From Squalus acanthias (Eukaryota), in NCBI GenBank assembly GCA_030390025.1, contig CM059431.1:153762001-153826000 (forward strand): a stretch of DNA of 64,000 nucleotides. Direction: 5' to 3'. Numbering within the stretch: the first letter of the stretch is position 1; every line of letters begins with the position of its first letter. Of the stretch, positions 42,961 to 63,489 are shown piece by piece. The translations under genes and the position numbers were made by a program. The notes beneath the pieces are model-generated. The model had not been told where the DNA came from. It ran no database searches and saw only the letters and a list, made by a program, of their open reading frames with translations.

Positions 42961-45900
42961 ATCGGCTAAGAGATACCAGCGGCGGAGCATAAAACCGTGG
43001 GGAAACAGCGCTGACCTGATTAGAAACAGTAGGAGCGGCAGAACCGTGGACGATTTCCAAAAGAAATCGAAGAGTGGCATCACAAGACAGCAGGTAGGTG
43101 ATTGGTTGGTGATTATTAAGGTTTTTTTTCGCTAACATCGGATAGTGGTTTAAACTCGGTGCAGGAAACTATAACTGCATTAAATGTATACATTAACTAG
43201 TTAAACTATTTAATATAACTATAAAAATCTTTGAATAATAATATTAGCTAATTAAATGAATAAAAAAAGCTCGTCTAAGATATGGCTGTGCAGTTTGTGT
43301 GTCTGGATTGCAGTATGTGGGAGTTGGTGGACGGCGAGACTGTCCTGAGGAAACACGTCTGCAGGAGATGTCACCATCTTGAATTTCTCCGGCTCCGAGT
43401 CATTGAGCTGAAAAGCGAGTTGGAGAAACCACGACACATAAGGGAGCGAGAGGAATTTCTGGACAGTTTTAGCCAGAGTACAGTCACACCCGAAAGGAAA
43501 GCACAGGTTCAGGAAGGTAAGGGTTTGACTGCTAGGGAGCCGGGTAGCGGGGATATCAGAGAGGTTGAGAAGGAGTTCGCCCAGATACTGGTCCTGTCCA
43601 ACAGGTATGATGTACTCGCTACCTGTGAGGACAAGGTGAAAGACTGCAGGGAGGAAAGCCACAATGCAGTCCAAGACACCGTGGCTCACAGGACTGTCCA
43701 GGGAACGGGGGCGGAAGAGCCGGAAAGAAATGTCGTAGTGATAGGGGACTCTATAATTAGGATGATAATTCGCCTCCTCGGCAGCGATGAACGATAATCC
43801 CGAAGGGTGTGTTGCCTACCTCGTGCCAGGGTAAGGAATATCTCACGGCGGCTGGAGAGGAATTTGGATATGGAGGAGTGAAATCCAGTTTTCGTGGTCC
43901 ATGTTGGAGCAAACGACATAGGCAGGAACAGGGAGGAGGTTATGCTGAAAGTGTTTCAGGAGACAAGCACTACATTAAAGGCATCCTCGAGTTTAATCAT
44001 CTCCGGGTTATTGCCCGAGCTGCGTGCAAATTGCCAGAGAAGCAGACAGATCAGGAGAATTAACAAGTGGCTAAAGGGCTGGTGTGGGGAAGTGGGGTTC
44101 CTTTTCATGGGACACTGGCACAAGCCCTGGGACAGGAAGGAGCTGTACCAATGGAACGGTGTCCACCCGAACCGGGATGGGAGCCGTGTCGCAGCAGAAA
44201 TGATAAATAGGGAGGTGGCAAAGGATTTACACTAGTAAGAATGGGGGAGGGATCTATAAGAAACGTAAGCAGCTAAAATATAAACCAAACAGGAAATGCG
44301 AGCATAGGGAAATAATAAAGTAAGGGAGGATATTGACGGCAAGGGAGCAAATAAAGTTATAGAACAACAGTCTAAAAAGATGGTTAAACATAAAAAGAGT
44401 GGAAATGCGATTAAAAGTGAGTTAACATATATGTACAGCAATGCACACAGTGTCTGAATTAAAACAGTGGAGCTGGAGGCAATCGTGCGTTGGGATGAAC
44501 CAGCCATAGTAGAATTATTAAGAGATGGCTACAGAAAAATTAGGGTGGGAATTAAACATTGCAGATTATAACATATTTAGAAAAGATAGAGAGGATAAAA
44601 GGGGGGGGGGGGCGGTGGAATAGCTGATGAGGGATACCATATTGGCTGTAGAAAAAAGGGATCTAGATATCAGCGTGACAAAAATAGAATCCATATGGAT
44701 AGAGATAAAAGATAATAAACGATCAATTACCCTAATAGGTGTATTCTACAGACCACCTAATAGTGAAAGGGAGGTGGAGGAAGAACTATACAGATAAATT
44801 AGAGCATGAGTAAAAAACAAAGAATAATAACCATGGGGGATTTCAACTGCCCCGATAATAATTGGACAGAAGAAGTAATTAAAGGGGATAATAGAATTGA
44901 GTTCCTACAATGTCTACAGGACACCTTTCTAGCTCAATATGTAAAAAAGTCCAACAAGGGAGGATTCGCTATTGGATATAATTATGGGGTTTGAGCCAGA
45001 GCAGATAAGTGATGTAAAAGTAGGTAAACATATGTGCAGTAGTCACCATAATATAATATGCTTTAAGATGACAATAGAGAAGGCAATAATGGCAAATTAC
45101 CAAGTGAATAGATTGGAGAAATGTTGATTTTGAGGGGCTGAGAATGGAATTTGTGTAGATAAAATGGGCAACAATATTGGCAGCAACGATGTAGAACGAC
45201 AACGGGAAACATTTAAAACAGTGTTCAATAAAATGCAGTAAAATATATATTCCGCTAAAAGTAAAGAACAAGCCAAACACTGATACCACTTCATGGATGA
45301 AAAAGGAGAAAGGAAATAATTAAGTTTATGGAAGAGGCATACATTCAGTACACAGACAGCAGAGGAGTGCATGATAAGAGAGAATACGAACGGATTAGGA
45401 AAGAAGTCAAAACTCCAATAAGCTCGGCAAAGAGGAATTATGAAATTAAATTATCATGGAATATAAAGAGAAAGAGTAAAATATTTTACAGGCACATAAA
45501 TAAAAAAGGAAGGTTGGGATGGGAATATGGCCCTTAAGTGATGGACAGGACAATACCAAAAGTAACGATAGGGAGATGGCAGAAATATTAAATCATTGGC
45601 CTAGAAATTCGCGTGGCCGGCTTGCCACGGGGGTAAGGATCGCGCGCGCTCTTACCCACTGCGCCTGCCGTTGTGTTTTAGGCCCACAGGGACTTCGGGT
45701 CCTGGGCCTCTCCCAAGAGCCGGCGCGCAGTGTTTGCATGTTCCAGGCGCTCATTTAGTGCGATGCGACCGCTGGGATCACGTGGGCCATGGAGAGCGAA
45801 GGGCAGCAGACCATCTTTCATTCATAGATTTGACAGGAGTCCTGTCAAATCTGTGAATTGAAATGGGCCGCAAAAGAACGGCTAAACTTAAAATAAATGA

Positions 45901-48075
45901 AAGAAAAAAACCATCACATTTATAAAATAACTATAGTTAAATAAATTAACCACTTTAAAAACAAAGTTAAATTTTTCAAAAAATTAAAATACTTTTTAAA
46001 TGTTATAAAAATAAACTTACCTTTCTTTAAAGTATCTAAAAAAGATAAACCTGTTGAAAAAAAAATTATACTTAATTAACTATTTACCTTGTTCAACAGG
46101 GGTCTTACGCCTCCTTTTTATTAGCGTAGAATCTTCAATACTTACCCTCGCGTTGAAACCTGAAAAAAAATCTAAGTGTGCTGCGTGCCCGCCGCCTCTA
46201 GCGCGCACGCGGTTCACCTAGGAACCGCCCCCTTCACCATACTGGAAGTTCCAGTTTCCCGCGCAACCGCAGTGCATGCAGGAATCCGGCACTTCGGGAA
46301 TGAATAGGGGTGAGTGCAAACTGAGCACTCACCCGGGAACGGCCGAATTTTTGGGCCATTATTTCGCTTCGGTATTTACCAGGGAGATAAAACATTTGGA
46401 CATGACGTTGGATAATGAGATGAGTAAAATGATAAGTGCATTTAAAATAAAAAAAGAAGATATATTAAATAAACAAATCAAACTCAAAGAGGATAAAACA
46501 CCTGGTCGGAATTTATTGCATCCATGCATTTTATTAGAATCCAGGGAAGAGATAGCAGAAGCATTAGAACACATTTTTAATAATTCGTTAGAAAATGTGT
46601 AGTGCCAGAGGACTGGCGGATAGCTAACGTAATACCTATATTTAAAAAAGTGGATAGAACATGTCCAGGGAATTATAGACCAGTCAGCTTAACAACGGTG
46701 ATAGGAAAAATAATGGAATCCCTACTAAAGGATCGAATAGAAGAATATCTAGAAACGAAAAGTATAATCATGAATAGTCAGCATGGATTTCAAAAGCAAA
46801 ATTCTTGCTTGACCAAAATTATTGAATTTTTAGAAGAACTAACAGAGAGAGTAAACAATGGTAATTCAGTAGATGTAATTTATCAAGATTTTCAAAAGGC
46901 CTTCGATAAGCTACCTTAAAATAAACAAATGAATAAAGTCAGAGAATGCAGAGCCAGGAGACTAGCAGCAGAATGAATGGCTCGCAGGCTTCCAGACAGA
47001 AAGCAGAGAGTGGGAGTAGAGGGTAGCTATTCACAATGGCAGAAGGTGGGTCGTGGTGTTCCACAAGGATCAGTGCTGGGACCACTGCTGTTCACAATTT
47101 ACATTAACGAGTTAGATTTAGGAATCAAAAACACAATTTCTAAATTTGCGTATGATACCAAATTGGGGGTCGCGGGACAGACCATACCGAAGAGGATTGC
47201 AACAAATTACAGGAGGACATGAATAAACTTGCAGAATGGACACATAATTAGCAATTCAAGTTCAACACAGGCAAATGTGCGGTATTATATTTTGGTATGA
47301 AGTATGGGGAGGTTACTTATCACTTGGAGGGTGCGAGTCTAGTTGGGATATTGGAACAAAGGGATCTCGGAGTGCAAATACACAATTCACTAAAAGTTGC
47401 GCCACAGGTTAGCAGGACCATTAAAAAGCAAACCAAGCAAAAGGGTTTATTCCTAGACGGATACAATTGAAAAGTAGGGATATTATGCTAAACCTGTATC
47501 GAACCTTGGTGAGATCACACCTGGAGTACTGCGTGTAGTTCTGTTCGCCTAATTATAAAAATGATATCGAGGCACTGGAGAGGGTGCAGAGAAGATTTAC
47601 AAGGATGATACCAGAAATGCGAAGGTATACTTATGAGGAAAGGATGAACAGTCTGTGTCTCTTTTTACTTAAAAAAAGAATGCTGAGAGGTGACCTGATA
47701 GAGGTATTTTAAATTAAGAGAGGTTTTGATAGAGTGGATACAGAGAGAATGTTTCGACTTCTGGGGATAAGTATAACGAGAGGCCATCAATATAAGATAT
47801 TCACAAAGAGAATCATTAGCGAATTCAGCAGAATCATTAGCCAGAGAGTGGTGAGAATGTGGAACTCGCTGCACAGGGAGTGGTTGAAGCGAATAGTTAC
47901 GATGCATTCAAGGGGGAGCTTGACAAACATATGAGGGCGAACAGAGTAGAGGTTTATTCTGATAGATTTAGATGAAGAAAGACGGGAGGAGGCTCGAGTG
48001 GACCATAAGCACCGGCATGGTTTTGTTGGACCGAAAGGCCTGTTTCTGTGCCGCATATCACTTGTAATCCTATGT
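42961..48075 (+). mobile_element. Near-full-length degenerate CR1 LINE (ORF1 zinc finger/esterase, ORF2)
   Basis: ORF1 VCLDCSMWE...CRRC, VVIGDSII, HVGANDIG; ORF2 MGDFNCPD, NYRPVSLT, GVPQGSVLGP. Confidence 0.9.
45598..46357. mobile_element. TIR MITE (PIF/Harbinger-like) with 3-bp ATT TSD, inside CR1 ORF2
   Basis: att|GGCCTAGAAATT...AATTTTTGGGCC|att; removing it plus one ATT restores the CR1 reading N-H-Y-F-A-S-V-F-T. Confidence 0.82.
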
Positions 48076-48766: not shown

Positions 48767-50392
48767 TGTAGAATTCGCAATATATCGCGATTTTATTAAT
48801 AAGGAGAAAACACAGAGTTTCGTTCAAACAGCTTTTATTTCAGCAGAATGCTGACAGGTTTAAAGTGGACACAAGCAGCCTGTAAAATGGCCGCCGCACC
48901 TCGTGACAGGACATTCTAGACTTTTCAACAGGCAGACAAGATGGCGTTCCAATAAACATTTGTGTAAGATCGATTAAGATTCAGCACAGTGAAGATAATA
49001 CACGAGACATTATGGGTTTGCAGTATACACATAAATACTGAAATCGGTCTCCCAGGTACAAATGAAAGCCATTGTACCGAGTAATCAAGGGCCCATCCAA
49101 AAGACATTAATATGTAAAATCCCAACGACTCTACGATGAGAGAGCCGTTAGCAGGTAGTTATTCAAAACACTTGGAAGCCCCAAAACCCCTCCAGGGAGA
49201 ACAGCGACCGATTTAACAATGTGGAGAAATATTAACAGGTACTCAGACATTTACGAGTATCCCCGAAACCCATTAAGAACGGAGATCACCCATACAAGAC
49301 ATTTGAGCGCCAAACCCTAAACAAAAGAATGGACATTATAGTTCGGCGGGAAACGGAAGATTTTGCACTATAATTGCAGGCTCCAAACCGTCCATCTTTC
49401 TCTTATCATCGTGGCTGCTCCTGTGCTCTTGTTTCGTAACCTCGTGTACTCGTAGTTGGGCTCCTGCTTGCCTGTTGCCTCTTTGAAAAGGACTGTTGAA
49501 CTTTCTGATCCGTTCGGATCTACCTCGTGTCGCGTAACGAAGACCTATGTTGGTAACTGGCAGCGGAACCAAAGGCCCGAGATGAGATGAGATGAGATGA
49601 GAAGAGAGGAAGACCATATCCATCGCCACGGTCAGTAAATCCCGACCGCGCCTGTAGGTCGATTATCCAAGTTTTCCTTGCCAGGAAGACTTCTTCGAAC
49701 TTGCAAGGAAACATATCGTATCGATGATATTGACAACTGTGCTCGAAAAGTACCTGTTAAACCAACCAACACAGGTCTTCATCACAGCAGACGTTCCAGC
49801 CTGCTAGCCGGAGCAGCAGAAGCAAGTAAACAAGTGGGACCAGGAGATCTCCTGACCGACACGTGGGTGCTGCGGTGAAAAACATCCGATCAGCTATTCG
49901 GAATTTCTCCGAGTTATCACGAGTGGTGAGCATGAGTCTCGAAGTCCTACGAATCTAGTTTAGGATAGATATTGATAGGGGAGGGTTAAGGATTAAGGAT
50001 ATTTGTAATGTGTGCCCCTATTTACTATGTGCCGTTCGTTCCTCGTTTCCCTAAGATCGACTATATAACTGCTTGTAAGATTGTACTGTCATTAATCTGT
50101 GCTTATGACATGTATTTCATAATCTTAAATATCATGCAATAAAGATTTTCCATTTCGTACCATTCAACCGAGTCTACATGAGTTTCATCTCCATTACTGC
50201 TCTCGCATCGAAGTCCAGTGTCTAGAACCGTAAGGGCGAGTGATTCGAACCACTCACAGGTGTGTCTAGTGTTCCCAGACTGGCTGGAGACCAGAACAGG
50301 CAACAAGGCCTAGACCCGCACTGACATACAGGCTGCACAGAGCCGCGTGAATCTCACAGGCTGCGAGACACGCAGGGTCAGAATCCCTTACA
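48767..50392 (+). repeat. 5' LTR (1626 bp)
   Basis: TGTAGAATTC...CCCTTACA; direct repeat of 59786-61422; AATAAA at 50138-50143; (GAGAT)n at ~49579-49600. Confidence 0.97.
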
Positions 50393-50396
50393 GAAA

Positions 50397-52208
50397 ATGG
50401 CGACCGCGGCAGGACACTGGCAGCGAGAGGGTAGTGTGTTAGACTTTGGAATGACTGTACGAAATGTTATGCAGGAAAAGATAGCAGATTATGTGTTTGG
50501 AAAGGTTAATCTAACTAAGATATGGATAAGTGAACTGTTAGCGGATAAAAGCCCGTTAGAGGCAGCCGAAAGGTGGACAGATAGTAAAGAACATAGAAAG
50601 ACACTTGAGAAAGCAGTCTGGCTTATGTGTTACAAAAGGCAGGTTCAGATTTCAAACCAGACCATTACAGCGCTAGTAGCTCGAATCAGTCATTTAGAGG
50701 GAGAAATGGATGAGAAGGTTTCTGGAGGGGAGGTGCTCATTAAGAATTTAAATGAGTTGCACCAAGAAAGCCAGGAAGTCTCCAGTCACCTTAAAACAAG
50801 GATAGATTATCTCGAGTGCCAGGTCACTGAGGCGAAGTTGAATTAGAGCAGGTTAAAGGAAAGATGTAACCGCCAAGCTGCCCAGATAAGAACTCAAGAA
50901 GAGAGCTTAACGGGGGTTAGGGCGGCATATAAGTTGGCCCTTGAGGATAAGTTTGAGGGAGCCGACCATAGCGCCTGCCAAAGGGAGATAGAGCACCTCA
51001 AGAAGGCCGTAAACAAAGCGAACGGCATGGTGTGCCTGATCAGTCCGTCAGCACACCAGCCGCTAGCAAGTGAGAAGTTTAAAAAATCCCCACCAAGCAA
51101 AGCAGAAGAAGTAGTAGCCACTGCGCCCTCCGCGCCACCCAGCTATTCGGAAACCTGGGTAAGGGAGGAAGCAATGGAAGAAACGAAAGAACCCATTGAA
51201 AAAGAAGTAGGAAAGGGACCGTTGTATCCAGTAACGGGTATTAAAAGGGGCCCAAGCAGAAACGGTGGGGAAGAACCGGGGGATCTCCTCGGACAGCTGG
51301 TGCTGCCTCACAGTTCACATCAGCTGAGAGCTATGATAAATCACGTACGGAAGCTGACCGAGTCAGACGACCCTTCCGTACATTTCAGAGAAGTTGAGCA
51401 AGCCGCAGCCATTAACGGCTGCGATGATGGGGAGACAGCAAAAATGCTGCTGTTCTCATTAGACAGCTCGGTCCTTCAGTGTCTCTCAGGCGAGAGCAAG
51501 AGGGGAACCAAGAGTTATGAGGAATTAAAGAATGAGGTCCTGGAAGTGTTGGGGGCGAACGATGAAGGTCCGTTTGCTAGAGTGGGACAGACAGTGCAGA
51601 TGGAGGGAGAACCCCCGAAGGTTTTTGCCGACAGACTGTGGCCCGTATATGAGCGCAGCTGTCTAGGTGCGCCCGAGCGCGAAGATGTGGAAGGCTTAGC
51701 TTTAACTCATTGGCTTAGGTGCATAATAGCCAACAGTTTACCAGCCGTCAGAGAGCAGGCAAAAGCATGGTTTGATCCCAATGACCCCAACATTACGGAA
51801 GAGTCGGTCTTGAATCGACTCACGTTAGGATATCGCAATATAAGGGGTATGGCAACACGTCCCCTTAAGGGAAGAGTACATGAGGTACGACCCGCAGCCC
51901 CGTATCACAGAGAGTGGCATCAGGAGGGTAATCGCGCCCCACAGGCAGGTAATGCTTGTTACGGGTGTGGGAAGACAGGGCACTGGCGCAAGCATTGCAG
52001 GAACCCTTGGAAGGATTCCAAGGATAAAAATCCCGCGGTCCGAGCCCAGGCGCCTGTCCCGGCTAAGGAAGCTAAGGCACCCACCCCTCCTGACGAACTC
52101 GAAGTAGTGTTAGGAGCCATGCGCAATCTAATCTTGAATGCACGTGGACAGGTGGCGGTCGCAACCGGCCCCGTAGGTGCCGCAGGACCATCTAATAGTA
52201 CCCCATGA
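50397..52208 (+). pseudogene. gag: gag with one premature TAG at 50844-50846
   Basis: ORFs 50397 and 50934 share a frame; coiled-coil-like N-terminal region, PSAPPSY late-domain-like motif, zinc knuckle CYGCGKTGHWRKHC. Confidence 0.88.
50398..50415 (+). promoter_or_regulatory. Primer-binding site, resembles tRNA-Ser type
   Basis: TGGCGACCGCGGCAGGAC, 5 nt after the LTR; TGG complements CCA. tRNA identity is tentative. Confidence 0.75.
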
Positions 52209-55200
52209 CTAGAACCGGCGCAGCCCGTCTACCTGTGTCCGCTTAGCTATGATGCGTGGAAGCGACCTTTGGTGGAGATGGAGGTAGAGAAACAGAGGGG
52301 TAGTTATTTGTTGGACACGGGAGCTTCTTGCACCATAATCCATACAGATAACCCTTTTGACTCGCCGCTATCTACCAAGGTCCCATTCACGTTAGCGGGG
52401 TTCACAGGAAAAGAACAGGCTGGCACGTTTTCCCTTCCGCTATCCATTCGTTTAGGAACACTTCGCCTTAAGTGGAAGTGTATACTGATGGCGTGGCAGG
52501 AGGGGGGTGGAAGAGGTATTCTCGGGTCTGATCTCCTATCGGGACACGGGATCCTCGTGGACCTCAGAAATCACTGTCTCTGGGGGGCTAAAGGTGAAAA
52601 AGGCGAGGTAATAGTGATTCCGGGGAGGAAGAAACAGGGGTCCTGTGTACCGTACAGCCATCCGGAGGCTACGACCTCAGGCTTATGGTCGCAGATGTCC
52701 CAACGGACATGCAAACGTACGTGTCAGATAATATGCACGCGTTTGCAACCCACAAGCACGATTGTGGGAGAGTGGTCGGGTTTGAGGTCAGCGTAGATGG
52801 GGACCCCATGACCCGACCCCAAAAGCAGTATAACTTCCCCAAAGAAGCAGAACCCGATATGGAGACAGCAATGTCCTCCTTGGTGCAACAGGGCGTGTTG
52901 AGGCCGATAGCCACACACGTGAACTCCCCATTATGGCCGGTTAGGAAGCCGGATAATTCGTGGAGAGCCACGGTGGACTACAGAGTCCTTAACAGTAACA
53001 TTCCCGCCTGCGCGCCCACGGTAGCAGCAGTTGCTGACCTAATAGGGAGCATCCCAGCGTCCGCGACCACGTTCACGGTGCTGGATATCTCGAACGGTTT
53101 TTGGTCCATCCCGCTGCGGCGAGAGGACCAGTACAAGTTTGCCTTTACTTTCAAAGGACAACAGTACACATGGAACTGTCTGCTACAGGGTTTCCACAAT
53201 AGCCCCAGTATTTTTCATCAGTGTATGGCAGGAAGTTTAAAAGAGTTTAGTCAGCCCAATCAGATAGTACAGTATGTGGATGATTTGCTCCTATTTACGG
53301 ACTCAAGGGAGGAGCATGGACCACTACTGGACGAGTTGTTGGAGCTGTTAGCAAGAAAGGGTTTTAAAATAAACCCTAAGAAAGCACGTATCGGTCAGCG
53401 GGAAGTAAAATTCCTGGGACTGACCATACGCGCTGGGGAAAGAGCCATAGACAAAGCAAGGAGGGAGTCGGTGCAAGAATTACCGATTCCCAACAACGTA
53501 AGGGGTGTGAGGTCCTTCTTGGGACTGACCGGTTACTGCAGGGATTTTATCGAAGATTATGCGGCCACAGCAGCGCCGCTCCTCCGACTCCTCCATAAGG
53601 GGGTGGAGTGGTTTTGGGACGAGGGCTGCCAAGCAGCCTTCGAGAAGTTAAAAAGGGATCTGCAGACCGCGCCAGCCTTAGGGGCCATAGATGGGGGGAA
53701 GGAGTTTTTTCCTGGAGGTAGCTGCCAGCGGAGACAGCTTAAGCGCCGTACTGCTCCAAGAGCGTCACGGCAAGCTGAGGCCGGTTGTCTATTCATCCAG
53801 GGTGTTAACGGATGTGGAGAGAAGTTTCTCCAATTGCGAAAGGCACCTTTTAGCCACGCATTGGGCTGTGAAAAGATCAGCGATCTTCACAGGGCTCTCT
53901 CCCATCACTCTCCTCACACATCACACACCAACTAAGATGCTTCTGGATGGGAGGATTAAAGACGGGACCGTAAGCAGCGCGCGCATTGCGCGTTGGACCC
54001 TTCTTCTCTCCCAGTTGGATCTTAGAGTAAAAGGTCTTTGCGAGCCCAGGCTTGCGGCCAATTTGGTATACCCCGGTACAGCCCACCGGTGTTCGGTGGA
54101 AGGGGTGTGGGACGTCAACATAGGTTTACGAGCCGGGATACATCCCACTGGGCGCGAGATTTATGTTGATGGGTCTAGCACAGTATCTGCTGGCGAGCGA
54201 CTCACAGGGTGAGGAGTTTATGACCCTGTGGCAGACCTTGCCCTGGCGATCAAGCTCCCTAGCACTATGAGCGCGCAGCAAGCTGAGCTGTCTGCCGTGG
54301 TGTACGTTGTGAACCACCCAGACATTTTCCCAACCCCATACACGATTTGCTCGGACAGTATGTTCACCTGCAATTCGTGTACGGAATACCTGGCCATTTG
54401 GTCCCGCCGAGGATACACCTCCGCGGACGGGCGACCTTTAACGGTGAAGCCCTTGCTGGAAAAGATCTTAGCAGCAGCAGTAGGGGAGGAAGGAGAGATT
54501 TTCATCCATAAGGTGAAAGCTCACTCCTCCACAGAGCCCCGTGGGGAGGGCAACCAGCAGGCGGATGCGCTAGCCAGGGAAGGTGCCCGCAACGGCATTT
54601 TCTGGAACCCCTATGGGACCAGACCCATAGCAGCGGTCCGAGGCAGGGACGGGAATCCCGGGAACACCAGGGTAGCATTGCCCCTAGACCTTAAGACCGT
54701 CCAAGCCCAGGATCCCGCCCTAAAAGCAGTCCTAAAAACCATTGCTGAGGGGAGGCAGGTAGAAGGTCCGTACAGTACGGCAACCCTCTCAGTTAAGGAA
54801 GGCATGCTGTTCCGCGAGGAGCAGTGGGTTGTGCCACAGCAGCACAGGAGGGAATTCCTCCAGTTGGCTCACGAGGGACCAGGGGCAGGGCACCCCGGGC
54901 CCGAGGTTACCTGGCAACGGGTAGAGCAAGCGGGATGGTGGCCAGGGCTCAGGGAACAAGTCCGCGAGTTCTGTGCAAACTGTCTTGTGTGCGCTGCAAA
55001 CAACCCAGACCCCCAGAAAAGGAAGGTACCCATGGGACACGTAAGAAGGGTAGAGGGACCATGGCAGTCGATACAGATCGACTATATAGGACCCCTGCCC
55101 ACCACCCAGGGAGGTTATAACTATTGCCTCGTCCTGGTGGATGTGTTTTCCAAGTGGGTGGAAGCCTTCCCTTGTCGAACAGCTACGGCACTGGGTACAG

Positions 55201-56691
55201 CAAAAATCTTGGTCCGGGAAGTGTTCTCGCGGTGGGGACTTCCCCGTTTTGTGGAGTCAGACCAAGGGAGTCATTTCACCGGCCAGGTGATGCAGAACAC
55301 CCTCATGCTTTTGGGCATTGAAGGGAAGTGGCACGTAGCACACAATCCCCAGTCATCCGGGATTGTTGAACGCATGAACCGGACCCTGAAGGAGAAATTG
55401 AGGAAAGAGCCTAGGAACTCGCCCCAAAAATGGGCGGAAGTTCTGCCTTTAGTCCTCATGGGGGTCCGGGCCAGTCAGTCAAAAAGTACGGGGTACTCCC
55501 CGCACGAGGCTCATGCGAACCCCCACCCATGTGCTAGCACCGGTGCTCACTGAGGGTCAGCTCCAAGAGATAAGCAGGGACAAGTTCGCCCAGACTCTCT
55601 TGGAGCGCCTGAAACAGGTTTATGAGCAGGCGGCTGGGAACATGGGAAGGCAGCATCAGGGCAATCGCTTGTTGCTGGAACCCCGCAAAACGCGGGAGTG
55701 GGAAGTAGGAGACCAGGTCATGGTCAGAAACTACGCCAGAGTAGGGAGTCTGGAACCACTGTATATGGGACCCTACAACATTGTAGACAAGGCGAGTCCC
55801 ATGGTTTACGCCGTAAAGGTACCTCGGCGCACTAAGTGGTTCCACATAAACCAATGCAAACTGTACCAGCCAGGTGCGCAAGGGAAAACTAGAGGGGTAA
55901 ATCCCGCCAATGGGAAAGCACAGCCCCAGGTAGGACCACAAGGCACACAGGCAGGCATAGCAGCTTGCATCAGGGGAAGGGACATCCCGGACGTTCATGC
56001 AGCGTTTTTCTGGAATTGGGGGTTAGATGAGGAAGAATTCAGGGTACCCGGGTCAGATGAGGATAGTGCAGATGAGGATAGTGATGACGACGGGTGGTTT
56101 CGGAGGAACGGCCCCTTTTACGATATGGAGGGGACGGGGGCTGCAGGTAGAGATCCACACAGGGTGGACACACAAGCTGCAGGTCCCGAAGACAGGAGGG
56201 AGGAGCTAGGGGAGGCAGGGCCAGCCGCTATGGGAGCACAGAGAGTACCGGTGTGGCTCCCAGAGATGTGGCCGCCCGCTTTGAACGTCCCGCCCTCGGG
56301 GGAGGCAGAGATCACGAGTGAAGGGCCGCCTGCTGGGCCGAGCAGGGCGGAGCCACAAACTGCGAGCCCCGAGGTTAGGGAGGCGGAGTCAGCGGAGGCG
56401 GAGCCAGCGACTGTGATGGAACCCCAGGTCATCCCGATGGAAGTCTCGGAACCGGGTCCGTCCGTCACGGAACCCCCGCCCATAGCAACTCCCCGTAGGT
56501 CAAGTAGAGAACCCCAGCCCAGGAGGATGTGGTCATGTCCCCAGACTGCCCCAAGGCGTAAATTTAAGGTTAAGATAACCCAGATACAGGCCGGCCACAT
56601 CGCAGCAGCAACAGGCTGCGGCAGATCAGAGGGAAGGTTCAGTGCCCTCCCACCGTCGGGAAGAGCTAGCAGCAGCCTTCTCAGAATTTAA
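52209..56691 (+). pseudogene. pol: pro-pol: protease, RT, degenerate RNase H tether, RNase H, integrase plus C-terminal extension
   Basis: LLDTGAS; LDISNGF and YVDD; IYVDGSS/SAQQAEL/GNQQADALA; HHCC zinc finger and D-D-E (DYIG, DQGS, ERMN); GPY. Frameshifts near 52630, 53705 and 55510; TGA at 54210-54212. Confidence 0.93.
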
Positions 56692-56983
56692 AGGGGCCGC
56701 CCTGAGAACGGGCGGCACTGTAAAGTTATTAGTTTTTAAGTTTTAAGTTAATAGTTCAAGGTTTAAGTTTATAGTTTTTTTTTATAAGGTTAAGTTTGTA
56801 GTGTTTTTAACAGAAAACGATAAAATGATGGGAGCTTTAAAGATAGGTTTAGTTAAAGTTTATTCAGCGAACGTGGAAGTTTACGTGAGGCGAGGTCAGG
56901 GGACCCGCTCACCCTTCACAGAAGCCAGAGACTCTTGCGAGGCTGGCTACCTCATTCTATCTGATCACAGGAACCAATGAAGG

Positions 56984-59335
56984 ATGGAACGAATTCTAGT
57001 ATTGCTCGTGGCAATCGGATGTGGATTGGCCTATCGAGGCCGCACCAAGGATGTCGTGGTGTTTGGATGTTCCGGTGACACGGCCCCCATCGCGGTGGAT
57101 GGGACCGGAAGACGGGAGGCAGAGGAGACCAGCACCTATTTCCACAAGGGAAGGTGGCCAGGATGGCTGGGAACGAACTCAACGGAGTATTCTAGCACAT
57201 CGGGGTTTGCCTACAAAGAGACTTCTTTACTGTGCCCCAAAGTAAGGATCATCGCACCCAGGATCAGCATCACCGTCGGCAAACGGATTTGTTTGACTTG
57301 TAGTGGGAATGTCCCATTGAGCCGATGGTGGTGGCTGCGAAAGCTGAGCAAAACTATGAGGAACTCTTCGGTCGAGTGGGAACGACTGGGTAATAATACC
57401 CATCGGACAATTACGGGGACAAACGGACAAGTGAAAGTCTGTTGGGACAAATGGTGGGAACCGGACGAGGGAATTTATGTATGTATGTGGGGGTCAAAGT
57501 ACGTTTGCCCCAAAGGCATCTCCATATTTTTCATTAATCAATGGCAGGATAACGGACAGGGGATGAGGTGGGATGCGAGCACCAGGGGGTGCGGAGCCCC
57601 ATTCTCCCCGATCCCAGTAAATGCCACTGAGCTCATTACGCGCCCACGCAAAGCCCCGCCCACGATTCCGGTGGTTCTAGCTGAGGAAGAAGGGTGCCCT
57701 AAAACTAGTAAGGGACCCGGGAATGGTTTGGTACTGGTCCCCACAGACCAGATACTATTTCAGGGGGTACATTACGCGGTGGCCTCGGTGAATTTAAATC
57801 TCACCGAGGTGCGGTTACCAGAGTGGTGCCCCAAAAAGACGGAACAATTGTATCAGGTCCTGTTGACCAAGATGTTCAGACAATTTTACGAATTCGATTT
57901 CGCGGAAATTGATAAAACAAGTTTGTACACCGCACCACAGGAAGTTTTGAATCAAGCAGGGAGGCAAAGAAGGGGTTTGGTGAACGATGCGTTCACTGCT
58001 TTTAACACGGGTACATCTGTGGTCAACGCTCTAGACAGAGTGGAGCTGCAGACCCAGATTAATGGTTTAAAGACACAATTAAAAGACATTCTAACAGATG
58101 AGAATAAAGTGGTAGGGTCAGGTTTACACGAGGACCAAGCCATGACTCTCCATTTAAAGGAGATTATAGCAGAGTTGGAGAAACATGCAAAGACGGTAAA
58201 TGCCCTGATTAGGGAAGATCGGAATGCATGCGATCAAGCTGCGCAGAACGAGGTGTGCGTGCTTTAAGGGGCGTGGTTACTGGGCGAGGGCCGCAGTAAT
58301 TTGGAGGATTTAAAACAAGGTTTGGTTCCGTCCTGGATAAGTAACAAACACCTGCGGGCGCTCCACCCTTTTCAGAACGCATTAAGTCCGTGCCAGCTCA
58401 GGCTAGCTTCAGAAGCTTACCCAGTCCCCGTGGACTGTGGACGATCAAACCATACTATTATGGGAATAGTATTACGCATGCCGGTTTTGGGCGACACAGC
58501 AAAGCCCGCCCCGGTGTATCGGGTAGAGAACATTGGTGTCATTCAGGGGGGAGCCCACATTCGTTATGCAGCGGTTCCACCTTACGTCATCCGCTGGGAG
58601 CAAACGATGACAGGTACAGATCTCTCTGGTTGTCGTGGCAGGGGAGCCCACATAATACTGTGCCCCCAGCACTTGAATGCCTTTTTAACACCACAGTGCG
58701 GGTTCAGAACGACTGGCGCCAAGTCCATGAATTGCACCATGGAGGCAATGGCACAAGATCATGTGCCTCCGCAGGTAGCATACATCGGGGGTGGAACATA
58801 TTTTGTTACCACTGTAGCGCAACACTACCAGCATGGAAACCGTAGCCCGTGTCCTGTGAGTGACAGCAGTTTCTGTTTTAAACCCAGGGCGGAAGTTCAA
58901 GTAGCACAACAGCGAATTGTCCCAATCCCTGAACCATCCACTGTTCATCTCACAGTAAAAGAGAATTTCACCGACTTGCAGCGATTCGTCGCGCATTTCG
59001 GATACCTCATTCCCCCTCTCCCTGAACACCTCACCAAGCTTTTAAAAGCCGTCGCGGTATCACAGAAACATTTTTACACATTAGAGCAGAAAACTGTCGA
59101 AATAGGAACAGACATTCTGGATATAGTGATTCCACCGTGGTGGAATCTGTTCACTAATATTGAAGTGCCTTCATGGATCAGAATAGCCTCCCACATTTTA
59201 GTCGTATGCCAAGTTTTCATTGTAGTGTACCTATTGGTCGTACATTGTAAAAGAGACAAGCGCCTCACCAAGCATGAAAACACGGGAGAGTGGCGAGAAC
59301 GTTACGTGTGCGTGCACGATGAAAGCACCGTGTAA
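56984..59335 (+). pseudogene. env: env: class-I fusion glycoprotein (F-like) with N-terminal Ig-like domain; one premature TAA at 58265-58267
   Basis: Signal peptide MERILVLLVAIGCGLA; furin RQRR then GLVNDAFTAF; heptad repeat; Cys-rich region; TM ILVVCQVFIVVYLLVV; ORFs 56984 and 58301 share a frame; candidate acceptor ctgatcacag at 56970. Confidence 0.85.
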
Positions 59336-59785: not shown

Positions 59786-61422
59786 TGTAGAATTCGCAAT
59801 ATATCGCGATTTTATTAATAAGGAGAAAACACAGAGTTTCGTTCAAACAGCTTTTATTTCAGCAGAATGCTGACAGGTTTAAAGTGGACACAAGCAGCCT
59901 GTAAAATGGCCGCCGCACCTCGTGACAGGACATTCTAGACTTTTCAACAGGCAGACAAGATGGCGTTCCAATAAACATTTGTGTAAGATCGATTAAGATT
60001 CAGCACAGTGAAGATAATACACGAGACATTATGGGTTTGCAGTATACACATAAATACTGAAATCGGTCTCCCAGGTACAAATGAAAGCCATTGTACCGAG
60101 TAATCAAGGGCCCATCCAAAAGACATTAATATGTAAAATCCCAACGACTCTACGATGAGAGAGCCGTTAGCAGGTAGTTATACAAAACACTTGGAAGCCC
60201 CAAAACCCCTCCAGGGAGAACACCGACCGATTTAACAATGGGAGAAATATTAACAGGTACTCAGACATTTACGAGTATCCCCGAAACCCATTAAGAACGG
60301 AGATCACCCATACAAGACATTTGAGCGCCAAACCCTAAACAAAAGAATGGACATTATAGTTGGGCGGGAAACGGAAGATTTTGCACTATAATTGCAGGCT
60401 CCAAACCGTCCATCTTTCTCTTATCATCGTGGCTGCTCCTGTGCTCTTGTTTCGTAACCTCGTGGCTGCTCCTGTGTACTCGTAGTTGGGCTCCTGCTTG
60501 CCTGTTGCCTCTTTGAAAAGGACTGTTGAACTTTCTGATCCGTTCGGATCTACCTCGTGTCGCGTAACGAAGACCTATGTTGGTAACTGGCAGCGGAACC
60601 AAAGGCCCGAGATGAGATGAGATGAGATGAGAAGAGAGGAAGACCATATCCATCGCCACGGTCAGTAAATCCCGACCGCGCCTGTAGGTCGATTATCCAA
60701 GTTTTCCTTGCCAGGAAGACTTCTTCGAACTTGCAAGGAAACATATCGTATCGATGATATTGACAACTGTGCTCGAAAAGTACCTGTTAAACCAACCAAC
60801 ACAGGTCTTCATCACAGCAGACGTTCCAGCCTGCTAGCCGGAGCAGCAGAAGCAAGTAAACAAGTGGGACCAGGAGATCTCCTGACCGACACGTGGGTGC
60901 TGCGGTGAAAAACATCCGATCAGCTATTCGGAATTTCTCCGAGTTATCACGAGTGGTGAGCATGAGTCTCGAAGTCCTACGAATCTAGTTTAGGATAGAT
61001 ATTGATAGGGGAGGGTTAAGGATTAAGGATATTTGTAATGTGTGCCCCTATTTACTATGTGCCGTTCGTTCCTCGTTTCCCTAAGATCGACTATATAACT
61101 GCTTGTTAGATTGTACTGTCATTAATCTGTGCTTATGACATGTATTTCATAATCTTAAGTATCATGCAATAAAGATTTTCCATTTCGTACCATTCAACCG
61201 AGTCTACATGAGTTTCATCTCCATTACTGCTCTCGGATCGAAGTCCAGTGTCTAGAACCGTAAGGGCGAGTGATTCGAACCACTCACAGGTGTGTCTAGT
61301 GTTCCCAGACTGGCTGGAGACCAGAACAGGCAACAAGGCCTAGACCCGCACTGACATACAGGCTGCACAGAGCCGCGTGAATCTCACAGGCTGCGAGACA
61401 CGCAGGGTCAGAATCCCTTACA
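59786..61422 (+). repeat. 3' LTR (1637 bp)
   Basis: Differs from the 5' LTR by ~6 substitutions, a 1-nt deletion and a 12-nt insertion (seen by eye). Confidence 0.97.
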
Positions 61423-63450
61423 GATGTTGAGTCCAGAAGGCAACCACAGTAGCGGAGAATCCTCACTTGAGGAAAAAAAGATATGTTGGAAGCACTAGTG
61501 TGGAAGGTGGCATCGTCGGAGCAGATGCAGTGGAGACAGAGAAACTTTGATAATGGAATAGTGTCCTTCCAGGAAGCGGGGTGGGAGGAAGTGTAGTCTA
61601 AGAAGCTGTCGGGGTCAGTGGGCTTGGACTGAAAGTCTGTCAATAGCCTATCCCTGGAGATGGAGAAAGAAAAGTCGATGAAGGGAACTGAAGAGCCGGA
61701 GATGGAACATGTTGCATGTGAGGGATACTTGGAAATTGGAAGCAAAGTGAATGACATTTTCTAGTTCAGGGCGAGAGCATGAAACAGCACCGATACAGTC
61801 CTCAATGTACCGGAAAATGAGGTGAGGGAAGGGGCATGAGTAGGAATGGACCAAATAACTTTCCACATATCCCATGAAAAGTTAAGCATAGCTAGGAACC
61901 ATGCGGGTTCCCAAAGCAACACCTTTAATTTGGAGGAAGTGAGTAGAATCCAAGGAGAAGTTTTTCGACATGAGAACAAGTTCAGCCAGGTGGAGGAGGG
62001 TGGTGTGGATGGGGAATGTTTGGGCCTCTGTTCAAGGAACAAGCGGAGCGCGCTCAGGTCATCCTGGTGGGGAATGGAGGTGTTAAGGAATTGTACGTAC
62101 ATAGTGAAATGTAAACGGTTGGGGACAGGAAACAGGAAACTGTTAAAGTGGCAGAGGGCTTCGGAAGAGTTTCGGATGTAGGTGGGAAGAGACTGGACAA
62201 GGGGAGAAAAAATAGTGTCGAGATAGGATAAGTTAAGTTCCTTGGGGCAAGAACAGGCTGAAACGATGGGTCTACCATGGCAGTCCTGTGTGTCGATCTT
62301 GGGAAGGAGGTAGAAGCGGGCTGTGCGGGGTTGGGGATCAATGAGTTTGGCGGCTGTGGAGGAAAGATCTCCAGAGGAGATTAGGTCAGTGACGGTCTTG
62401 GAAACGTTTGCTTGATGTTCGGTAGTGGGGTCACGGTCCAGGCAGAGGTAGGAGGAGGTGCCGGAGAGTTGGCGTTGAACCTCCGCTAGGTAGAGGTCAG
62501 TTCGCAAAACAAAAACAGCACCACCCTTGTCTGCAGGTTTAATGACAATTTTGGGGATGGATCTGAGAGAATGGAGTGCTGCAAGTTCACATGGAGGTAG
62601 GTTTGAGTGAGTGAGGGGTAGAAAGAAATTGAGACAACCGATGTCACGCCGACGGTTTGCAATGAAAAGAACTAGAGCGTTTAAGAGGCCAGAGGGAGAG
62701 ATCCAGGCAGAAGGATAATTCTGAAAAGGGGAGAAAGGGTCAGCCGTGCGGGGGGAAGTTCCTGGCCAAAGAAGTGGGCATGGAGACGAAGGCGGCGGAA
62801 AAAGTGCTCAGCATAGTGCCGAGCTCGAAATTCATTGAGAAGGGGCGTAAGGGGATGAAGCTCATGCATTTGCTAAGGACTGATCGTTCGGTGTCAGACA
62901 GCGGAAGGTCAGAGTTGATAGTGTAACCACAGCAGGGGTTGAGATTGGAAGAAGTGCTGGGGTCAGACAAAAGTGAAGGGTAAGAAGGTTCCGGAGTGGT
63001 GTTGGTGTCCAAGAGTTGTTGAAGCTTGCGATCCTTGACACCTGAAAGTAAGAAAAAACGTTTTTTGCAAAAGCGCCGAATGAGGCGAAGGATGAAATGG
63101 AAGTGAGGTCCAGGATAGCTTTGAGATAGAGTGAGGCATTGCTGCTGAAGAACCTGGTCGAGAGTGTTCATTTGGCGGCGCATGGAATTCAGCGTGGATC
63201 TCAGGATAGGGCAAGAGCAGTGTTTCGAGGAACGCTGACTATCATGGAGGTATCTGTAGTCCTGTGTGGATCCAAAACACGAAGGGTGGAATTTTAGTTG
63301 GAATACACATGGAGTAAGTCGGAGGCGGAGAAAGTTGCTGAGGAAAGATATGTGGCTGTGAAAAAGGAGACAGAAAGCAATGAAGATGATCAAGATAAAA
63401 GAGACAAACGGATATCCCGCCGGAGAGTAGAGCAGAACTTCTTCAATTGG
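61423..63450 (-). mobile_element. Degenerate Penelope-like retroelement (RT region)
   Basis: YLAEVQRQLS, PRTARFYLLPKI, GRPIVSACSCP, FRYIEDCIG, FFRRLRLHAHFF. Confidence 0.88.
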
Positions 63451-63489
63451 GCATTCTTAGAAGATTGATCTTCTTAAAAAGCTTATGCC

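Follow-up and report, generated by a model that had tools for sequence, protein, structure and literature searches.

The 64-kb window analysed here (the whole stretch of 64,000 nucleotides of Squalus acanthias DNA) carries an endogenous retrovirus (ERV) whose Env appears to place a Cys/Trp-rich module of ~190 aa in front of a predicted F-type fusion machine. The middle of this conserved unit probably folds as an immunoglobulin (Ig) V/I-like domain. Judged at motif level and by eye, the ERV is likely related to snakehead retrovirus (SnRV). Based on the position of the module, its linker and the exchange of modules in a sister family, we favour with modest confidence the idea that the module is the attachment (receptor-binding) head of an F-type Env in an SnRV-related ERV.

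The features of the provirus are compiled in Table 1. The 5' and 3' LTRs are identical at 1620 of 1626 aligned bases, with 13 gap bases. A tandem LTR array was suspected at the 3' end, but this was wrong and the LTR is simply longer than first taken. The primer-binding-site-like sequence recurs 3' of the 5' LTR in all five siblings in which that LTR end was located. In the window copy gag is interrupted by an in-frame stop (50844-50846), pol carries frame changes and a stop, and env is broken by an in-frame stop at 58265-58267. At 52206-52212 the gag TGA is followed by CTAG, with pro continuing in the same frame, and a gag-terminal TGA is common to all siblings with a located gag-pro junction (7/7). 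UGA-CUAG is a known read-through context. Because of this context and the shared frame of gag and pro, translation of Gag-Pol likely proceeds by read-through of the UGA. The integrase carries a C-terminal extension of ~270 aa (55870-56691), acidic and Pro-rich, behind its SH3-like domain. Directly 5' of the env ATG lies a pyrimidine-rich tract ending in CAG (56950-56971) that resembles a splice acceptor. Three contig sets, whose type was guessed, covered all 30 bins and contained the env splice joint in none, and one raw RNA run gave 0 reads. Decayed retroelement frames flank the provirus (43882-46919 and 61296-63456), which we take to resemble pieces of CR1/L2 LINE and Penelope-type RT. A tRNA scan and a bacterial promoter scan returned nothing relevant.

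Table 1. Positions of the proviral features and of the parts of the env frame, numbered from the first letter of the window.
Feature	Position	Strand	Basis
Provirus, LTR-gag-pol-env-LTR, ~12.7 kb		(+)	
5' LTR, TG...CA, 1.63 kb	48767..50392	+	alignment to 3' LTR
Primer-binding-site-like sequence, begins TGG, 5-nt spacer after 5' LTR	50398..50415	+	
gag, one CCHC zinc knuckle, candidate start codon, terminal TGA 52206-52208	50397..52208	+	
pro-RT-tether-RNase H-integrase, RT motifs snakehead-retrovirus-like	52209..56691	+	
env frame, Met at 56984	56984-59335	+	
env signal peptide, predicted	56984..57040	+	hydropathy
N-terminal arm of module, residues 20-87 (C29, C84, sequon N65)	57041..57244	+	
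Ig V/I-like core, residues 88-186 (C106, W117, DxGxYxC167, extra C103 and C153, sequons N127 and N137)	57245..57541	+	
C-terminal arm (C203) and Pro/Thr-rich linker	57542..57694	+	
RPRKAPPTIPV, in linker, ~50 residues after C167	57641-57673	+	
F2-like part, from CP..GP..GLVL motif (body from C238) to furin site RQRR	57695..57973	+	motif comparison by eye, mature N-termini of loki Envs
Furin site RQRR, residues 327-330	57962-57973	+	
F1-like part: fusion peptide, heptad region, Cys-rich beta region, transmembrane helix, short tail	57974..59335	+	
env transmembrane helix, residues ~732-756	~59177-59250	+	
3' LTR, polypurine tract directly upstream	59786..61422	+	

The ERV family of the window is young and present in many copies. 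The genome holds at least 150 near-identical copies of it, and the identity of the domain was 98-100% in all 150 matches that were scored out of 5537 candidates in the 3.7-Gb genome. Open frames of at least 800 aa were seen in 19 of the first 30 genome matches to the domain, and a 4-bp target duplication in four of the five siblings with both flanks located. The stretch or part of it is also contained in 14 public runs under six organism codes.

The env frame displays the features of an F-type fusogen, namely a signal peptide, the furin site RQRR, a fusion peptide, a heptad region and a transmembrane anchor. The profile of the Env body matched foamy-virus Env (E=8e-4), and in the ESM Atlas the body fell to Baculo_F (0.93) and Fusion_gly clusters with a low recognition score. 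Pfam Fusion_gly had no match in Env, and a PDB search with the F part alone as a single sequence gave none. We predict from these features that the Env body is an F-type (class Ib) fusion machine. The provirus combines this F-like Env with a dual RNase H (tether plus RH), the latter being, to our knowledge, common to all retroviruses. A lokiretrovirus was the first guess from the F-like Env and was rejected: in a comparison by eye with 24 published loki RT rows, the window RT lacks QY[KR][IL]PL, S[RG]WP and PFG and has QGF in place of the PFG that is found in 24/24 of these rows. A loki survey reports 0/6 chondrichthyan genomes as positive (PMC7947760). By eye, the RT instead matches SnRV and SnRV-like ERVs (PMC4422223; PMC4977317; PMC12193657), sharing with the SnRV row DGSWR/DNSWR, PTVA, LDISNGFWSI, QGFH.SP.IFHQ, QYVDD and KINPKK. 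The Env tail of SnRV has 136 residues according to the same sources, whereas that of the window Env is short. An SnRV-like ERV lineage (CmiERV lineage I) is reported from the elephant shark, a cartilaginous fish (PMC4422223). The best solved-structure matches of the RT were foamy virus (183 bits), MLV (176) and Ty3 (122). Foamy virus and ERV4 were also tried as assignments and rejected. In foamy virus the receptor-binding domain (RBD) is inserted 5' of the furin site and Gag has no Cys-His box, whereas here we found a 93-residue F2-like part, an N-terminal module and a zinc knuckle. ERV4 (Chong et al.) has no gag zinc finger, no GPF/Y and a 5-bp duplication, whereas the window's family has a CCHC knuckle, GPY and a 4-bp duplication. 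The data suggest that F-type Envs extend beyond foamy viruses and lokiretroviruses.

The env frame contains ISITVGKRICLTCSG, WWWLRK and DEGIYVC where an earlier, sequence-only reading had placed them, and the Ig V/I-set motif recognised by that reading is present, with the B-strand C106 at 57299, the C-strand W117 at 57332 and D161-x-G163-x-Y165-x-C167 at 57464-57484 in canonical V/I-set spacing. The signature pattern had one match in the six frames of the window and 0 in 20,000 env shuffles, a rarity that is overstated because the pattern was composed after the sequence was inspected. The sequence-only reading had further put the domain right behind the signal peptide, at 57240..57495, and let the linker RPRKAPPTIPV follow it. 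The domain does lie between signal peptide and F part, but starts ~70 residues after the former. The core was located correctly, but its likely G strand runs to ~57541 and thus past that end. The linker motif does stand before the F-like part, but only some 50 residues beyond C167. The module has three sequons in total, and its N-terminal arm may contribute one edge strand to the sandwich.

The module core is under purifying selection. A look at sibling elements, as proposed with the first reading, found the Ig core retained in 30/30 copies that had been chosen by their F core. In these 30 copies the pN/pS of the core was 0.14 for shared variants and 0.19 for singletons, compared with 0.04 and 0.18 for F1. 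Against 20 loci of two other families in the genome the window core was 53-64% identical (pN 0.22-0.27, pS 0.67-0.79), and its conservation is about that of the F2 part. Across three families of this genome, module and F core have co-diverged to synonymous saturation, and the module is retained in proteins of Rhinoraja (skate), Pristiophorus (sawshark) and Rhincodon (whale shark).

Related Envs share the F start and the Pro/Thr linker, and the slot in front of these holds a different module or none. A sister family in the same genome, with an RT 39-42% identical to that of the window, has three Cys-rich N-terminal env modules (L084, L119, L125; C25, C548 and C1 of G000). In pol the three proviral types share 94-96% identity, in the F core 91-96% and in the flanks 90-96%; they have no DNA similarity from the signal-peptide region to the linker, and as proteins the three modules are mutually unrelated (blastp E 0.77-1.5). 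DNA searches showed two of these modules to be multi-copy, with near-full-length matches in 20/40 and 4/5 cases, and one module is shared at 89% identity by two backbones that are themselves only ~70% identical. The three modules gave no Ig signal and no match in Pfam or the PDB. Because the sister family carries three unrelated modules on near-identical backbones, the slot likely houses an exchangeable cassette for cell attachment; receptor-binding cassettes behave in this way. A natural module-free Env in the sister family was considered and rejected, since the loci concerned (L129-L134) appear to have arisen by internal deletion and to carry their signal peptide out of frame; this variant is amplified and has lost most of the module (6 loci examined of 19 partial matches).

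Further Envs fill the slot in other ways. P0012-type Env holds a second Ig-like type, auto-named ‘Ig-like domain-containing protein’, with contactin and CADM matches at E of at least 0.01. Residues ~17-127 of P0038 (a Logan record) form a Cys-free V-like domain (V-set E=0.045; SLAM/CEACAM-type PDB matches at E of at least 0.2), and this V-set-like domain is the leading candidate for a host capture whose source might be traced. P0011 and P0022 carry Cys-rich domains in the slot, which is empty in P0039 and P0047. When modules were compared with each other, 14/15 pairs had a probability below 2%, and the window module against the P0012 type alone gave a weak signal (E=0.018 for the two Ig cores; E=5e-4 at a probability of 31%). 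In the Env P0020 of the frog Pelodytes ibericus an Ig-like segment is preceded by a second furin-like site (REKR). Within the window's own family no module exchange was seen, and the window module tracks its F core on the F-core tree. Module type mostly follows the clades of this tree of 25 rows (5 changes versus a minimum of 4), from which P0040 was left out and in which row L035 is a long-branch artefact.

How might such a module act? The receptor-binding role put forward by the sequence-only reading is plausible, and module exchange in the sister family strengthens it. Env would be a furin-cleaved trimer whose N-terminal (F2-like) subunit retains the module, tethered flexibly by the linker; as an attachment head, the module would bind a molecule on the cell surface, and the F1-like part would fuse the membranes. 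F proteins normally need a separate attachment protein, which a retrovirus does not have, and the published loki Envs show no visible binding domain. RBDs are often fast-varying; against an attachment head count that the window core is about as conserved as F2 and that exchange is known from the sister family only. Alternatively, the module might be a decoy that modulates immunity, or a glycan shield, directed at a host immune receptor, with entry handled by the F core. We regard this as unlikely. F-type Envs can exist without a module, because P0039, P0047 and all 21 loki Envs with an N-terminus have none; moreover, the top sequence matches of the window module are immune and adhesion proteins of the Ig superfamily (CRTAM, JAM), and its three sequons would suit a shield. 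However, these matches are weak (E 0.027-0.46) and name no ligand, and the place at the Pro/Thr linker together with replacement by unrelated modules fits an attachment cassette at least equally well. It is quite unlikely that the module caps the pre-fusion trimer or assists its folding and has no binding partner on the cell. Its strong conservation, its many Trp and Cys residues and its co-divergence with the F core in the window's clade are in line with such a role, but in the sister family F cores that are nearly identical are combined with three unrelated modules, and some relatives carry none, which a specific structural partner should not tolerate.

All fold tests of the module core agree in direction, towards Ig, and none reached a formal cut-off. 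Pfam Ig_3 scored 15.3 bits on the window core against a cut-off of 30 (E=0.029) and matched 13/17 aligned homologs at E<=1, all below cut-off, the best at E 0.0013. The best ESM Atlas matches of the core were Ig V/I-set clusters at 0.93, and one clan took 9 of the 10 best family matches. JAM was the best PDB match for the single sequence (E=0.46) and the CRTAM V domain for the profile (E=0.027). AlphaFold with a 17-sequence alignment gave a beta core at pLDDT 63-83 (mean of the model 57.9), and both the G strand and the C-terminal arm stayed below 50; on the single module sequence the pLDDT was 35. VIA-align of the module model listed Ig-superfamily chains throughout its best 50 rows (top Z 7.5, rmsd 2.6, 84 aligned), where, by the tool's own warning, a Z below 8 can reflect merely a common arrangement. 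Among the best 50 rows of Foldseek, all at E of at least 0.03, were 46 antibody-type V domains, judged by title or chain size, and 4 AlkB. No match at E<=0.001 was obtained for the model in this search or against viral models, and the structural matches were at most 23% identical. C106 is conserved in 17/17 and C167 in 16/17 aligned homologs, and the additional C103 and C153 are invariant in 17/17; from V-domain geometry the latter two would lie opposite one another, on strands B and E of the Ig register. A search for longer fused homologs of the N-terminal half of env found none, which is weak evidence. Thus, the claim of an Ig-like domain ahead of an F-like fusogen gained support from Pfam, the Atlas, the PDB profile and AlphaFold with VIA-align, each below threshold, and the AlphaFold, Foldseek and HMM check suggested along with it yielded a beta core that matches Ig chains, but passed no formal cut-off.

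That every fold score stays below cut-off, that no host homolog is among the 49 hits described below, and that the E strand is atypically Trp-rich and the conserved arms long would also suit a viral beta-sandwich that merely resembles the Ig superfamily and has no host gene as its source. We consider such a sandwich distinctly improbable in view of the canonical spacing of the B-strand Cys, the C-strand Trp and DxGxYxC, the automatic Ig-like name of a related Env and the V-set match of P0038 (E=0.045).

The sequence-only reading had also proposed a captured host Ig domain and a search for host homologs. This search found no host Ig donor among 49 hits from 1.84 billion representatives, all of which read as env pieces; together with structural matches of 23% identity or less and the synonymous saturation shared with the F core, this leaves the proposal unsupported. 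Since the module is shared across families and species at synonymous saturation, with no host donor among the hits, these comparisons indicate a long-standing component of this Env and no fresh capture. Because no host donor was found, any capture would have to be an ancient one; we infer that the Ig core derived long ago from an immunoglobulin-superfamily gene whose donor can no longer be named. Although captures are published, of a SIRP IgV in an alpha-like Env (10.1101/2024.03.17.585361) and of nectin3 in a crocodilian ERV4 (PMC4299795), a recent capture of a host Ig gene by the window's element is highly improbable and largely refuted, as the domain is common to three genome families at synonymous saturation and to the Rhinoraja, Pristiophorus and Rhincodon proteins, and the 49 hits contain no donor. 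Database gene models join Env pieces to host genes in P0002, P0003 and P0034 (Niban-like, zinc-finger, F-box-like); these fusions are probably annotation chimeras.

Returning to the module as a putative attachment head, we see an about even chance that a wider picture holds, in which SnRV-related viruses of cartilaginous fish and amphibians would pair a minimal F-type fusogen with exchangeable attachment cassettes at its N-terminus; several domains of Ig type and several unrelated Cys-rich ones would share one slot, with swaps between viruses at the Pro/Thr linker. Retroviruses would then have a third one-protein route to class Ib entry, next to those of coronavirus spike and foamy Env. The Ig cassette itself would go back to an ancient capture from a vertebrate cell-surface gene. 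These Envs offer an F scaffold with a putative head, without one, and with heads exchanged between near-identical viruses. According to PMC11468914, the class Ib F scaffold accepts binding modules N-terminally (coronavirus spike) or internally (foamy Env), and the natural series makes this insertion model testable. Like the class Ib fusogens described there (paramyxovirus and pneumovirus F, foamy Env, spike), the window Env is F-like with a furin site and a fusion peptide. It differs from foamy Env, in which an RBD of distinct fold lies 5' of the furin site, in that the module is N-terminal, small and Ig-like, and from paramyxovirus and pneumovirus F in that F itself carries no such module.

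The provirus resembles lokiretroviruses (Wang and Han, PMC7947760) in its F-like Env, its LTR-gag-pol-env order and its dual RNase H, and a GP..G(I/L)VL motif opens the F core in both (by eye), in the window near residue 244. Unlike the window Env, 21/21 loki Envs with an N-terminus begin the F core right at the end of the signal peptide (22/23 entries were compared, one of them truncated). As loki Envs run from signal peptide into F core, the window module would therefore be an addition to a minimal F. CrocERV31, a crocodilian ERV4, is likewise a retrovirus with Ig-superfamily domains; there a whole nectin3 host mRNA (~76% identical) stands in place of env, whereas the window has one diverged domain and retains env (PMC4299795).

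The sequence-only reading knew of no standard description of such a domain in Envs of this kind. For F-type Envs this holds in the literature searched: full-text searches, which covered few subscription journals, found no report of a retroviral Env of F type that carries an Ig module, and the word ‘Immunoglobulin’ is absent from the loki paper (PMC7947760) and part of its supplement and from the errantivirus and Troyka texts, each to the extent available. It does not hold for gamma-type Env (MLV, FeLV, EnvP(b)1), whose standard layout has an N-terminal IgV-like RBD followed by a proline-rich linker; RBDs of this kind are transferred from one Env to another, and in one case a host SIRP domain was captured (Hotzel, 10.1101/2024.03.17.585361). 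The same source allows a closer comparison. As in the RBD-C of gamma-type Env, an N-terminal IgV-like domain is tied by a proline-rich region to the remainder of Env. In contrast to RBD-C, where the B-F cysteines are absent, the window module keeps them, and unlike the SIRP-like IgV RBD with its known donor it has no nameable one. Finally, the body of gamma-type Env is a class Ia SU/TM body, whereas that of the window Env is predicted to be F-type. What is new is a probable Ig-fold module on a different fusogen class, while the design principle is already known: the IgV-plus-linker design of gamma-type Env appears to arise here on an unrelated fusogen.
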